Assembly (NCBI GenBank): GCA_964631415.1
Contig: CAZVZC010000008.1
Location: 1-56,705 of the forward strand
DNA from: an uncultured archaeon
Lineage (GTDB): Archaea; Asgardarchaeota; Thorarchaeia; Thorarchaeales; Thorarchaeaceae
Length of the DNA: 56,705 bases
Reading direction: 5' to 3'
Shown piece after piece: positions 5,985 through 9,495 of the stretch; the stretch's first letter is position 1, and every line of letters begins with the position of its first letter. A program made the translations under genes and the position numbers. Below the pieces are notes generated by a model. That model was not told the DNA's origin. It ran no database searches and saw nothing but the letters and a program-made list of their open reading frames with translations.

Positions 5985-6096
5985 GCCGAGGTTGCCAAGT
6001 CAGGTCAAAGGCGGTGGACTCAAGATCGGCGCCTGACTCCGCTGAGAAATCCACTCTCGTAGGAGTCCGTGGGTTCGAATCCCTCCCTCGGCACCA
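5985..6096 (+). tRNA. tRNA-Leu(CAA) with 24-nt intron at 37/38 (6025-6048)
   Basis: GCCGAGG/CCTCGGC acceptor; GTGGA-CTCAAG[intron]A-TCCAC; BHB core CTCA/TGAG with AGA and AAA bulges; long variable arm; ACCA. Confidence 0.93.
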
Positions 6097-6224: not shown

Positions 6225-6254
6225 AAGAAGAGGGGAGGTGTTACGTTGCCTCCC
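6225..6254 (-). terminator. Hairpin plus pyrimidine tract ending the small-peptide operon
   Basis: Minus strand GGGAGG-CAACGTAACA-CCTCCC-CTCTTCTT, overlapping the TAA of peptide 3. Confidence 0.55.
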
Positions 6255-6363
6255 ACGCGAAAACCTCAGTCACAGTCAACACATGAGCCTTGGTTGGATT
6301 GGAACTCCGCACATGCAGGCTGGTAGGACGAACTCTAGATCGCTTGGCAGAATCAACGTTCAT
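6241..6363 (-). CDS. Small peptide 3 (40 aa) MNVDSAKRSRVRPTSLHVRSSNPTKAHVLTVTEVFAWEAT
   Basis: ATG 6 nt after SD AAGGTGA, which contains the stop of peptide 2; motif TEVFAW; not in ORF track (<60 aa). Confidence 0.6.
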   Translation of the reverse strand: MNVDSAKRSRVRPTSLHVRSSNPTKAHVLTVTEVFAWEAT

Positions 6364-6369
6364 TCAGTT

Positions 6370-6477
6370 TCACCTTGCGAACCTAGCGAAGTATGCGAAA
6401 GCGATTGCCTCGGTGGAGATTGGGACTCTGCGGACTGGTGCCCCTGCGGTATGGACGTAAGTCTTCATCTGAGCCAT
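6370..6477 (-). CDS. Small peptide 2 (35 aa) MAQMKTYVHTAGAPVRRVPISTEAIAFAYFARFAR
   Basis: ATG 5 nt after SD GAGGTGA, which contains the stop of peptide 1; STEAIAFAY matches STDAIAYAY of peptide 1. Confidence 0.7.
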   Translation of the reverse strand: MAQMKTYVHTAGAPVRRVPISTEAIAFAYFARFAR

Positions 6478-6482
6478 TGAGT

Positions 6483-6593
6483 TCACCTCACAACAGTAGC
6501 GTAGGCGTAGGCGATTGCATCAGTGCTCTGAGCCTTTGCCATGATGTTCTTCTTCCCAACAGATGTGTTTCGAGTGTTTACTTCGTGCGCCAT
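6483..6593 (-). CDS. Small peptide 1 (36 aa) MAHEVNTRNTSVGKKNIMAKAQSTDAIAYAYATVVR
   Basis: First ORF downstream of TATATATA (6626-6633); GTGAACTAAA-ATG start block resembles those of peptides 2 and 3. Confidence 0.7.
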   Translation of the reverse strand: MAHEVNTRNTSVGKKNIMAKAQSTDAIAYAYATVVR

Positions 6594-6614
6594 TTTAGTT
6601 CACGAGTTATGCTG

Positions 6615-6680
6615 CTCAGACTGAGTATATATAGCGAAGCCACTTTCAGGGGTCACTGCACAGAGTCACATGATGTGACT
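6615..6680 (-). promoter_or_regulatory. TATA box with flanking palindromes for the small-peptide operon
   Basis: TATATATA 6626-6633, 33 bp from the ATG; CTCAG-A-CTGAG 6615-6625; AGTCACA-TGA-TGTGACT 6664-6680. Confidence 0.5.
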
Positions 6681-6751: not shown

Positions 6752-8470
6752 CTACTTCCTGATTTCCTTGAGCAACGCTTTCAACGGGTATGTGTTGACC
6801 ACGTCTTTGGGCTCTATCCATCCTCGCCGTGCTTGGAACACCCCAAATGGCATATTGGAGAGTTCGCTCACCCGATGGGCGTCCGTATTTATGGCAATCT
6901 TAAGACCAAACCTCTTTGCAGCTCTCAGGTTTCCGTCATTGAGATCGAGCCGTTGGGGATGGCTGTTCAGCTCCATGATGACCTTGTTTGCACGCGCCAC
7001 CTCAAACACTCGTTCCAGGTCAATCTCATACTCAGACCTCTTGAGCAGCAGCCGGCTTGTTGGGTGACCTAAGATGTGTGCATGCCTGTTCTGAAGGGCT
7101 GTGCAGACTCGATTGGTGATCACCTCTTTTGTGTCCTTCATCCTAGAGTGGACAGATACTGTGACCACATCCATTTGCTCCAACACTTGGTCGCTGATGT
7201 CGAGATCTCCATTGGCCAGTATGTCCACCTCCGCGCCCTTCAGCACCTTCATCTTCCATCTGCCTGATGAGTTGATACGGTCGATCTCTTCGAAGGCCTT
7301 CAGCATCTGCTTCTCATCCATGCCGCCTGCTATCGTCAGACTCTTGGTGTGATCTGACACACAGAAGTAATCATAGCCTCTCTTGGAAGCGGCGTCAATC
7401 ATCTCTTCAATCGTGTTTGCGCCGTCGGATTTGTCAGTGTGGCTGTGAAGGTCGCCCTTTATGTTTCGTAAGGAAACAAGCTGCGGGAGCTCGTGACGCT
7501 GCGCGGCCTCGATCTCGCCCTTGTCCTCCCGGAGTTCCGGAGGTATGAGGTCTAAGCCGAGCACCTTGTAGAGCCCCTCTTCGTCCTTCCCCGCCACCCG
7601 GTCCTCACCTCTGAATAGGCCGTATTCACTGAGTCTGAGGCCCATCTTCTGGGCGATTGTTCTCACGTGTACATTGTGATCAATGCTACCGGTGAAGTAC
7701 TGAAGACCAGCCCCGAAGCTGTCAGTCGGAAGCACCCGCACGTCGACCTGAAGACCGCTCTTTAGTCTGACCGAGGATTTGGTCGGTCCATGAGCAATGA
7801 CATCTGCCACATCCGCGAGATGTACGAATGCTTCCATCACCATAGTACCATCATCGGCGTCCACTAGCACATCAATGTCGCCGATGGTTTCCTTCCTTCG
7901 TCGAAATGAGCCAGCTATGACGACTTGTCGTACCCCTTCGACCTCTTTCAGTGACTTCTCAATGCTCTCCGCGATAGGAAAAGCATCAGCCAGAAGTGTC
8001 CGACCAAGACCCGCACGAACAAGTTGGATACCCTCGACTATCTGGTCCACAGTCTTCTTTCCTATGCCTTTCAGTTCCGTTAGCCGCTCCTCCTTGACCG
8101 CCTTCTCCAGAGACTCAAGGTCTGTTATACCGAGGTTCTCATAGAGCAGCTTCATCGTCATGGGGCCGACACCAGGTATCGCATCGAGTTCCTTGACTTT
8201 GACAGGTATCTCTCTTCTTAGGTCTTCAAGCGCAGGTATTGAGCCCGTCTTGAGGAGAGAATCAATCTTCTCGGCCAACGACTTGCCAACACCGGGAATC
8301 TGCATCAACTCGCCTCGAGAACTTATGGCCTCGATGTCTTCTCCAAGCGATGCTACGGACCGGGCCGCCCGATCGTATGCCCTAGCCTTCTGCTTAGATT
8401 CCGGCTTACCTTGTATCTCCAACAAGACTGCGAACTCACTCAGTGCTTGTGCGACCTCGTTGTTCCTCAC
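6752..8470 (-). CDS. polX: DNA polymerase X with C-terminal PHP domain
   Basis: HhH repeats, GSFRR..GDIDVL, YFTGS, PHP motifs DLHSHT..SDH..TDAH; GTG start at 8470 after SD GGGAGG. Confidence 0.93.
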   Translation of the reverse strand: MRNNEVAQALSEFAVLLEIQGKPESKQKARAYDRAARSVASLGEDIEAISSRGELMQIPGVGKSLAEKIDSLLKTGSIPALEDLRREIPVKVKELDAIPGVGPMTMKLLYENLGITDLESLEKAVKEERLTELKGIGKKTVDQIVEGIQLVRAGLGRTLLADAFPIAESIEKSLKEVEGVRQVVIAGSFRRRKETIGDIDVLVDADDGTMVMEAFVHLADVADVIAHGPTKSSVRLKSGLQVDVRVLPTDSFGAGLQYFTGSIDHNVHVRTIAQKMGLRLSEYGLFRGEDRVAGKDEEGLYKVLGLDLIPPELREDKGEIEAAQRHELPQLVSLRNIKGDLHSHTDKSDGANTIEEMIDAASKRGYDYFCVSDHTKSLTIAGGMDEKQMLKAFEEIDRINSSGRWKMKVLKGAEVDILANGDLDISDQVLEQMDVVTVSVHSRMKDTKEVITNRVCTALQNRHAHILGHPTSRLLLKRSEYEIDLERVFEVARANKVIMELNSHPQRLDLNDGNLRAAKRFGLKIAINTDAHRVSELSNMPFGVFQARRGWIEPKDVVNTYPLKALLKEIRK

Positions 8471-8472
8471 GA

Positions 8473-9495
8473 CTATTCCTCCCATTCCTTTGTCCATGGG
8501 ACTATTGACCTGATGGCATCTACTACTGCATGAATGTTGTCCTCCGGGGTGTCCATTGGGATGTTGCAGCCAGGAGCCACAATCAGGCGTTCGAGCCCAG
8601 CCTCGTGTACAGCCGTTAAGACCTGCTCTTTCGCTTCATCACGTGAGCCTGTCTTCAACGGGCCATCATGGTCAATTCCCCCAAGGACTGCCCTTCTTGA
8701 CATTGTCTTTCCCTCTCTGAGTGTAGGGCCAACACGCTGGTCCTCCCAGCTCAGTCCGTCCAATCCGGGTGTGCGAGCAACTCTCTCGAGGGGGACAGTT
8801 TCAGCTCCCGCTCTTGCGTGGAGATGCATTATGATGAACTTGGCCCGGCGCTGGAGCCGCGCTATCAGCTTCAAGTTATACGGAAGAACGAACTCTTTGT
8901 ATTGATCTTCCGTGATTTCCGAGTCAGTCGAGCGCTCCGACACGATAAACAGGCCATCGGCGCCAGCATCGAGAGCGGCTCTTCCGAAGTCAATCATGAC
9001 TCCTGTGACCATCTCTAGGGCGCTCTTCATGATGTCTGGGCTCTCCACAATGTACTCCGCGAACTTCTCTTCACAGAGCCTGTCCGCGACAGCCGAAGAA
9101 TCCAAGACAGGGGCCATTGTCGGTACCTGTGCTTGGGCATACCTGTGTATGAGCTGCACGGCGCGAATCTGCTTGCCAAACTCACCCGCATTGACGTCTA
9201 AGGGCTCTAGCACTTCCCAGTCAGCGGAAGAACGCACGGCGTAGCTCTCACACTTGGTCGAACCTGTGACTGCACCATCATACACAGGTACGCAACCCCA
9301 GTCCACAACAGGATAGCAGTCATGAAAGCTGATCTTCATGAGATCGTGGTCGAACTGCCTGTGCAATGCTATCTCAGACTCGGCTAGCCCTTCTGGAGTG
9401 CGGTTTCTCTCCTGGTGATTCTTCCATATGGTGATTGGCACACTGTCGCCGACATTCCCCAAGAGAGTCTGCCTAATCAACTCAAATCGTGACAT
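8473..9495 (-). CDS. Uroporphyrinogen decarboxylase-like (URO-D/MtaA superfamily) protein
   Basis: DAGADGLFI, MHLH, GGID, IVAPGCNIP motifs. Confidence 0.8.
   Translation of the reverse strand: MSRFELIRQTLLGNVGDSVPITIWKNHQERNRTPEGLAESEIALHRQFDHDLMKISFHDCYPVVDWGCVPVYDGAVTGSTKCESYAVRSSADWEVLEPLDVNAGEFGKQIRAVQLIHRYAQAQVPTMAPVLDSSAVADRLCEEKFAEYIVESPDIMKSALEMVTGVMIDFGRAALDAGADGLFIVSERSTDSEITEDQYKEFVLPYNLKLIARLQRRAKFIIMHLHARAGAETVPLERVARTPGLDGLSWEDQRVGPTLREGKTMSRRAVLGGIDHDGPLKTGSRDEAKEQVLTAVHEAGLERLIVAPGCNIPMDTPEDNIHAVVDAIRSIVPWTKEWEE

Follow-up and report, generated by a model that had tools for sequence, protein, structure and literature searches.

The question raised by the short interval between the genes for tRNA-Leu(CAA) and polX in the genome of an uncultured archaeon of the family Thorarchaeaceae is whether it encodes proteins and, if so, what these proteins might do. 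The interval belongs to a stretch of 56,705 nucleotides (contig CAZVZC010000008.1 of the assembly GCA_964631415.1), which is referred to below, at its full length, as the window. On its minus strand, from position 6680 down to position 6225, a first-pass annotation made from the DNA letters had pointed out three back-to-back open reading frames (ORFs) that it took for an operon of three paralogous peptides. The layout proved to be as described—three consecutive ORFs between the two genes, equipped with a promoter and a terminator of their own—and the locus is best explained as a self-contained transcription unit for three soluble micro-proteins, designated here as types A, B and C. Judged by comparative sequence evidence, it is very probably a true operon, controlled by a shared operator, whose micro-proteins are translated.

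Organization of the operon

All the elements of the unit are located on the minus strand. ORF1 (6483..6593) encodes a type A micro-protein of 36 amino acid residues with the pattern M-A-x3-N-x-R ... S-T-x-A-[IL]-x-[YHF]-A-[YF] ... R; ORF2 (6370..6477), a paralogue of type A, encodes a type B micro-protein of 35 residues counted from the ATG; and ORF3 (6241..6363) encodes a type C micro-protein of 40 residues, which belongs to a separate family and has the C-terminus E-V-F-A-W-E-A-T. The Shine-Dalgarno (SD) sequence of ORF2, GAGGTGA, consists of the last codon of ORF1 and its stop, and that of ORF3 of the AGG codon of ORF2 and the following TGA.

Upstream of ORF1, the distal operator is a perfect palindrome, AGTCACA-N3-TGTGACT (6664..6680), at which conservation among 118 distinct units sets in abruptly, to continue as far as the ATG. 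It is followed by the proximal half-site GTGACCCC (6649..6656) and by the core promoter, comprising a conserved GTGGCTTCGC block in the position of the transcription factor B recognition element (BRE; 6643–6634) and a TATA box, TATATATA (6633–6626), likewise conserved across the units. A conserved (T)TGTGAA block (6594..6603, with GTGAAC at 6603–6598) would, from its spacing of ~23 nucleotides (nt) past the TATA box, correspond to the transcript start, leaving a short 5′ untranslated region with a weak SD-like GTGA. At the opposite end of the unit, a terminator-like hairpin, GGGAGG-N10-CCTCCC (6254–6233), overlaps the last codons and the stop of ORF3, with the pyrimidine tract CTCTTCTT (6232–6225) directly 3′ of it.

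Selection at the protein level

That the three frames are selected as proteins had been suspected from synonymous codon differences between ORF1 and ORF2, and the codon statistics of the whole family support it. The variation is highest at the third codon position: the mean entropy per codon position amounts to 0.90/0.87/1.32 bits in type A, 1.02/0.85/1.59 bits in type B and 0.61/0.42/1.10 bits in the last ten codons of type C, and the columns of invariant Thr, Ala and Val use three to four synonymous codons. The ratio of non-synonymous to synonymous substitution rates (dN/dS) was calculated by the Nei-Gojobori method for pairs aligned without gaps at an amino-acid identity of 60% or higher; its median is 0.36 in type A (293 pairs, 99% of them below 1), 0.22 in type B (31 pairs) and 0.44 in type C (22 pairs). 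Differences in length stay in frame, as exemplified by ORF1 of a same-genus relative, G002, which has one extra codon. Between the window and this relative, ORF1 exhibits four synonymous and two non-synonymous codon changes, and the 87 nt upstream of it are identical at 85 positions. By these statistics, all three ORFs are under protein-level purifying selection.

Family membership, copies and taxonomic range

As far as sampled, the micro-protein family is restricted to one family of Thorarchaeota, as profile searches of genome sequences indicate. The type A profile matched 53 of the 59 genomes of the window's family, with 1–11 matches per genome, and none of the 192 genomes that represent 27 further families of the phylum; a stop codon was present in only one of the more than 150 type A matches listed. 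The finding of the same cassette with open frames in 53 of 59 genomes goes far beyond chance, and the expectation of frames conserved in relatives has thus been confirmed. It should be noted that the family genomes without a profile match that were examined, three in number, still have the operator and divergent members of the family; in one genus and a few others, the members present are all divergent.

A DNA search of related genomes found the part reaching from the palindrome through ORF1 in multiple copies in the organism's own genome and present in many genera of the family. Further copies in the own genome, identified by tblastn and by a hidden Markov model built from the first matches, comprise type A genes at C19:13988-14095, C41:7230-7337 and C9:46605-46712, the last of them followed by a type C gene, as well as a second, near-identical cassette (promoter 99% identical) split over two contig ends, C42:1-77 and C62:6323-6468, where the repeat probably broke the assembly. 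The third ORF of this split cassette has no type C motif at its end and runs on for ~100 codons.

With one genome taken per species, the promoter pattern was found in at least 118 stretches. The sources, among the matches listed, are metagenome-assembled genomes labelled Candidatus Thorarchaeota, 'uncultured archaeon' or Promethearchaeota, together with one Hermodarchaeota. The pattern had no match in viral contigs, and a pattern scan of metagenomes yielded ordinary contigs of more than 1 kb only, none of them transcript-like.

The loci fetched on this basis provided 104 distinct type A, 60 distinct type B and 38 distinct type C sequences. Downstream of the promoter there is a type A gene, then often a type B gene, with type C often third. 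Type A starts with M-A-[LHQ]-x-x-N-x-R, continues with a variable basic middle part and the block S-T-x-A-[IL]-x-[YHF]-A-[YF], and ends with R; type B starts with M-A-L-A-K and has S-T-x-A-I-x-x-A-Y-F-R-R later on; in type C, a hypervariable polar stretch precedes [LT]-[ST]-[LV]-x-E-V-L-A-L-E-A-T.

Concerning the relatedness of the three types, the first-pass annotation had proposed one C-terminal motif common to all of them. This holds for ORF1 and ORF2, the profiles of types A and B being matched by hhalign with a probability of 98.6% (E-value 5.6e-16), and the view that the two arose by duplication and have kept a C-terminal motif, their basic N-terminal parts being variable, is borne out. 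It does not hold for ORF3: the comparisons of C with A and of C with B both remained below 0.3%, so that the proposed alignment of its T-E-V-F-A-W with the T-D-A-I-A-Y of ORF1 fails at the family level and ORF3 is no third paralogue. By profile comparison, types A and B are paralogues, whereas type C is unrelated and forms a separate family.

One copy per genome keeps the arrangement seen in the window, so that the interval between polX and tRNA-Leu(CAA) does hold the cassette in relatives, where it had been suggested to look for it. The polX gene (6752..8497, minus strand) lies directly upstream on the same strand and is syntenic in at least 17 loci. The convergent tRNA-Leu(CAA) gene (5985–6096, plus strand), a syntenic marker of the orthologous locus, was detected by Rfam and by aragorn -i; it contains, according to the latter, a 12-nt intron after position 40 and was missed by ARAGORN with default settings. 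Among the relatives, the intron at this position ranges from 12 to 36 nt. In a scan of the window locus with Rfam 15, this tRNA was the sole match, with no other known non-coding RNA family found.

The paralogous loci outside the polX site are each syntenic across species, and their neighbours differ from locus to locus, including a major facilitator superfamily (MFS) transporter together with a Gcn5-related N-acetyltransferase (GNAT), 3-hydroxyacyl-CoA dehydrogenase, an ATC-hydrolase-like protein, methyltransferases and hydrolases. No enzyme, transporter or regulator common to these loci was found within 1.5–8 kb in ~100 loci. A GNAT acetyltransferase of the RimJ/RimL type (PF13302) is situated just downstream of one paralogous locus, at C41:7491-8060 in the own genome (corresponding to L304:2491-3057), and of 15 other loci; all A and B peptides begin with M-A, a typical substrate of N-terminal acetylation, and the adjacency of the acetyltransferase gene may be mere synteny.

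The operator and its candidate regulon

Three features had not been recognized in the first-pass annotation, namely that the genes form a multi-copy family, that the upstream operator is its best-conserved part and that this operator stands in front of other genes, too. The ~90 nt upstream are better conserved than the coding sequence. Variants of the palindrome arms, such as GTAACA, are not compensated in the opposite arm, as would be expected of a DNA site bound by a protein and not of an RNA stem. The pattern AGT[CA]ACA-N3-TGTGAC[CT] occurs 2–11 times per genome of the family, compared to about zero for the reversed control.

Operator sites away from the known peptide genes precede divergent members of the family, a bactofilin-domain gene or the gene for a membrane protein of 369 residues. 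The bactofilin-domain protein (~412 residues; PF04519, 28.8 bits) is encoded in the own genome at C6:6312-7550, with the operator at C6:6228 (loci L181 and L305), and its orthologues (L306–L334) share the GTG..T.CGC-TTTATATA core of the micro-protein operons, immediately preceded by the palindrome. With the strict pattern, the operator was found 5′ of this gene in 24 of 28 family genomes, three of the remaining ones exhibiting near-variants and the locus of the fourth being cut by a contig end. The membrane protein—polytopic, with internal repeats and an acidic N-terminus, and assigned to no Pfam family—stands behind the operator in at least four genomes (L173, L175, L178/L182:1537-2643(-) and L180); it was not found in the own genome, which is 85% complete. 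What is a half-site in the peptide promoters corresponds, in the bactofilin promoter, to the right palindrome arm; a peptide promoter therefore has the appearance of a full site in the distal position combined with a half-site in the proximal one. The operator common to the micro-proteins, the bactofilin-domain gene and the membrane protein suggests a Thorarchaeota-specific regulon. From the end of the operator to the TATA box downstream of it, the distance is ~15 nt, a position typical of archaeal activators.

Some loci, and C41 of the own genome, have an alternative upstream element, in which TGGTCA(C/G) occurs three times as a direct repeat at distances of ~11 nt, with CATGTGACCA and TTGTGAAA after the repeats, and which contains a TGTGACCA box. 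It is found between a type A gene and the next gene of the family, at C41:7150-7229 and in ten fetched loci. An apparent ORF within this element was rejected as coding, the conserved DNA being read in different frames in different genomes.

Overlapping constraints at the gene ends

The proposal that an arginine codon plus the stop serves as the SD sequence of the next gene, implying translational coupling, applies to the whole family. Of 105 distinct type A genes, 96 have AGG as their final codon, with TGA, TAA or TAG after it; the SD sequence (G)AGGTGA or AGGTAA is thereby built from the terminal AGG and the stop, with the next ATG 5–10 nt on. Since the terminal AGG doubles as the SD of the next gene, the 'invariant' terminal Arg is in part an SD constraint.

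A second overlap concerns the end of type C. In most genera, a hairpin of 9 bp with a loop of the GAAG type is formed by the last six codons together with the stop, and a T-rich tract comes after it. Among 37 distinct sequences of this hairpin, 88% of the cells are paired, and pairing falls to 21–43% in slid controls; 14 cells are changed on both sides, compared to 4.5 ± 1.7 in shuffled alignments, none of the 500 shuffles reaching 14. Some of the compensating pairs combine a non-synonymous change (Ala to Met or Lys) with a synonymous change of Thr. The window's genus has a different hairpin over the same codons and has kept the ...W-E-A-T ending; the survival of the ending with a different hairpin indicates that the peptide motif of type C is not merely a by-product of one stem.

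At many loci, the genes of types B and C are in one frame, separated by a TAG stop and two codons, so that reading through the TAG, if it occurred, would give a B–C fusion. Public B–C 'fusion' proteins of 68–77 residues were rejected as artefacts of gene calling. Two of them that were checked translate only with TAG read as Gln, so that their DNA has a TAG stop, and the rest share a Gln at the stop position; these two and 16 similar proteins (loci L159 and L160) trace to metagenome gene calls in the European Nucleotide Archive that applied a TAG = Gln code to short contigs of Thorarchaeota.

Properties of the micro-proteins

Types A, B and C have median lengths of 34, 31 and 38 residues and median net charges of +5, +6 and −2, respectively, the charge of type C ranging from −8 to +3 and being positive in the window. 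All three are hydrophilic, with a grand average of hydropathy (GRAVY) of −0.5 to −0.6, and no transmembrane-like segment was found in any of them, the highest 15-residue Kyte-Doolittle window having a median below 0.5 and a top value of 1.9; they thus lack the transmembrane helix of type I toxins and small membrane proteins. AlphaFold2, run with the family alignments, predicted a single helix both in type A (residues 24–34, predicted local distance difference test (pLDDT) of ~81 over the block) and in type C (residues 31–38, pLDDT ~79), the parts outside the helix being of low confidence and without secondary structure. Type A is conserved at both ends with a variable middle, Asn6, Arg8 and Lys14 being invariant or nearly so, and in type C only the last 8 residues are conserved. 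In our reading, the conserved positions of types A and B would come to lie on the same face of the helix, which has small residues (A-x3-A, in addition to I/L and Y/F), a pattern of tight helix–helix packing.

The first-pass annotation knew of no described archaeal system matching the locus, and the searches agree with it. No type has a match in Pfam, NCBIfam, PADLOC, PHROGs or the PDB sequences at E-values up to 1–10, and the nearest neighbours in the ESM Atlas score 0.78, i.e. at noise level. Among 1.8 billion representative proteins there are 38 matches to type A, nearly all of 29–59 residues; no fusion to a known domain occurs among the 38, and for two long proteins of repetitive sequence the match covers just the low-complexity middle part. 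Fusions of type C to larger domains were not found, either; in public sets, it occurs only as 'hypothetical protein [Candidatus Thorarchaeota archaeon]'. The literature on Asgard small proteins, microproteins and ribosomally synthesized and post-translationally modified peptides (RiPPs) contains no description of the A/B or C families, nor of the operator, and no curated family covers them.

Proposed mode of action

A mechanism that would accommodate these features starts with a dimeric transcription factor binding the operator and switching the whole set on together, the position just upstream of the BRE and the TATA box fitting an activator. Translational coupling would then yield A, B and C in a fixed proportion. 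The N-terminal tail of each micro-protein would be disordered and evolve fast, with a basic character in A and B and a mostly acidic or polar one in C; at the C-terminus there would be a single helix of 8–11 residues, which in A and B would have the small-residue A-x3-A face. The helix would be a docking module that binds the other peptides and/or a common partner, with the co-regulated bactofilin-type polymer and the membrane protein as candidates. The micro-proteins would act as stoichiometric regulators or accessory subunits rather than as enzymes, exported peptides or RNAs. The chances that this mechanism is correct as a whole are judged to be about even.

Several points weigh against this reading, the first being that the constraint is narrow. 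Within the genus, ORF2 diverges fast, with 3 synonymous and 17 non-synonymous codon changes with regard to G002, and ORF3 has 2 synonymous and 7 non-synonymous changes in its first 26 codons compared to 0 and 1 in the last 14, dN/dS of its N-terminal part exceeding 1 against this relative; the constraint is therefore confined to the short terminal motifs, with fast-evolving tails. Moreover, the SD sequence, and hence the nucleotide level, accounts for at least part of the conserved terminal Arg in A and B, and the hairpin, as its covariation indicates, also constrains the codons for the last residues of C. The charge of type C is not conserved, being positive in the window's own genus, and a short helix at pLDDT ~80 in a model of 36–40 residues is weak structural evidence. 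The prediction of an A+B+C complex scored 0.02, which speaks neither for nor against binding. The gene of the operator-binding factor was not recognized next to the loci checked, and the role of an activator is proposed from the position of the operator. Finally, a search for RNA data sets containing the organism found none; four RNA runs with the same species label had no read on the stretch and are no test of expression.

As an alternative to docking helices, the products may be abundant protective or nucleic-acid-binding small proteins, A and B coating DNA or RNA by their Lys/Arg/Asn-rich tails and Tyr-bearing helix, and the mostly acidic C acting as a chaperone or neutralizer, all from multi-copy genes induced together. 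The high positive charge packed into the 31–34 residues of A and B, opposite to the median of C, would agree with it, as would the nearly invariant Asn6, Arg8 and Lys14 of type A and the 1–11 dispersed copies sharing one very conserved promoter, which suggest a need for quantity. The genes for the α/β-type small acid-soluble spore proteins (SASPs) of Bacillus are also dispersed small-protein genes with a shared conserved promoter, their joint induction being a feature of the SASPs; these are, however, monocistronic, DNA-binding proteins of 60–75 residues with a defined fold, to which no homology was found. No similarity to any nucleic-acid-binding family was detected, either, and conservation is found on the hydrophobic, small-residue helix face instead of in the basic tail; with type C basic in the window's genus, this explanation appears unlikely.

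The peptides may also be RiPP-type precursors modified in trans by a distant enzyme, with the S-T-x-A-[IL]-x-x-A-Y block and the C-terminus of type C as sites of recognition or modification. Dispersed as well as tandem genes for 30–40 residues with short conserved motifs containing Ser, Thr and Tyr are many here, and precursor genes far from their enzymes occur in other RiPP classes, such as the prochlorosins. The paralogous loci nevertheless share no enzyme within the distances examined—one may act in trans from elsewhere in the genome—and the conservation of type A at both ends around a variable middle is not clearly the pattern of a leader and a core. In addition, Cys is almost absent from A and B and no export gene is present, which makes modified precursors quite unlikely.

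A still different role would be that of leaderless secreted peptides, i.e. an archaeocin-like multi-peptide antimicrobial or a signalling set. The resemblance here is to the leaderless multi-peptide bacteriocin operons of Firmicutes, e.g. those of aureocin A70, garvicin KS and enterocin L50, in which related cationic peptides of 30–45 residues, made without a leader, are encoded by two to four closely spaced genes in tandem; types A and B, translationally coupled, are of this kind. The bacteriocins, however, are hydrophobic or amphipathic throughout and encoded beside transporter and immunity genes, whereas the peptides studied here are hydrophilic (GRAVY ~−0.5), with a helix of only 8–11 residues instead of a full-length amphipathic one, and the third of them, mostly acidic, is not related to the other two. 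The loci have neither a transporter nor an immunity gene in common, there were no matches in PADLOC or PHROGs, and the paralogous loci are each stably syntenic rather than cassette-like, so that secretion seems very unlikely.

A non-coding RNA or cis-acting leader, the ORFs being incidental or acting only by being translated (arrest or attenuation), would account for the high nucleotide conservation of the upstream region and of parts of the ORFs, for the conserved residues before each stop, as in arrest peptides, and for the hairpin overlapping the last ORF, but it is largely refuted, and hardly credible, in view of the selection on amino acids (third-position variation, three to four synonymous codons, dN/dS of 0.2–0.4), the in-frame indels, the lack of any Rfam match but the tRNA, the uncompensated palindrome variants and the lack of a downstream gene to regulate, the terminator hairpin being followed by the convergent tRNA.

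Returning to the preferred reading of small regulators or subunits docking by a helix, a parallel is provided by sP26 and sP36 of Methanosarcina mazei, likewise unannotated proteins of fewer than 60 residues under promoter regulation, for which the binding of a larger protein is a feature. There is no sequence relation to them, and they are encoded by single genes, in contrast to the multi-copy three-cistron cassette with a family-wide operator described here.

Significance

Coupled micro-protein operons as such are already known; the one described here is a new, lineage-specific variant, with a link to a regulon and with overlapping constraints. Two undescribed micro-protein families, A/B and C, have been defined, which annotation pipelines mostly miss, and the 17-bp operator together with the core promoter offers a signature searchable in any genome of Thorarchaeota. 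At the gene ends, such overlaps are particularly clear: the codon of the terminal Arg also serves in the next SD sequence, and the last six codons of type C also form the stem of the terminator. For experiments, there are handles in the peptides of 30–40 residues, which can be synthesized, in the operator as a bait for its factor, and in a named candidate partner.

The candidate regulon ties the micro-proteins to a bactofilin-type cytoskeletal protein. Halofilins, archaeal bactofilin families, have been linked to cell-shape plasticity and have homologues in Asgard archaea (PMC11459167). They are relevant here only to the co-regulated bactofilin-domain gene (PF04519), the micro-proteins having no bactofilin domain, and the link would be one of co-regulation, as deduced from the shared operator, not of homology.

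The Asgard archaea are the closest known relatives of eukaryotes; to our knowledge, almost nothing is known of their small proteins and transcriptional regulons, and the Thorarchaeota have remained uncultivated. As a speculation with only a small chance of being right, types A, B and C would be the high-copy output of a Thorarchaeota-specific regulon that includes the bactofilin-type polymer and the repeat membrane protein, and would represent a new class of modulators, docking by a helix, for an Asgard programme of cytoskeleton or membrane remodelling, whose response the fast-diverging tails of the paralogues could tune.

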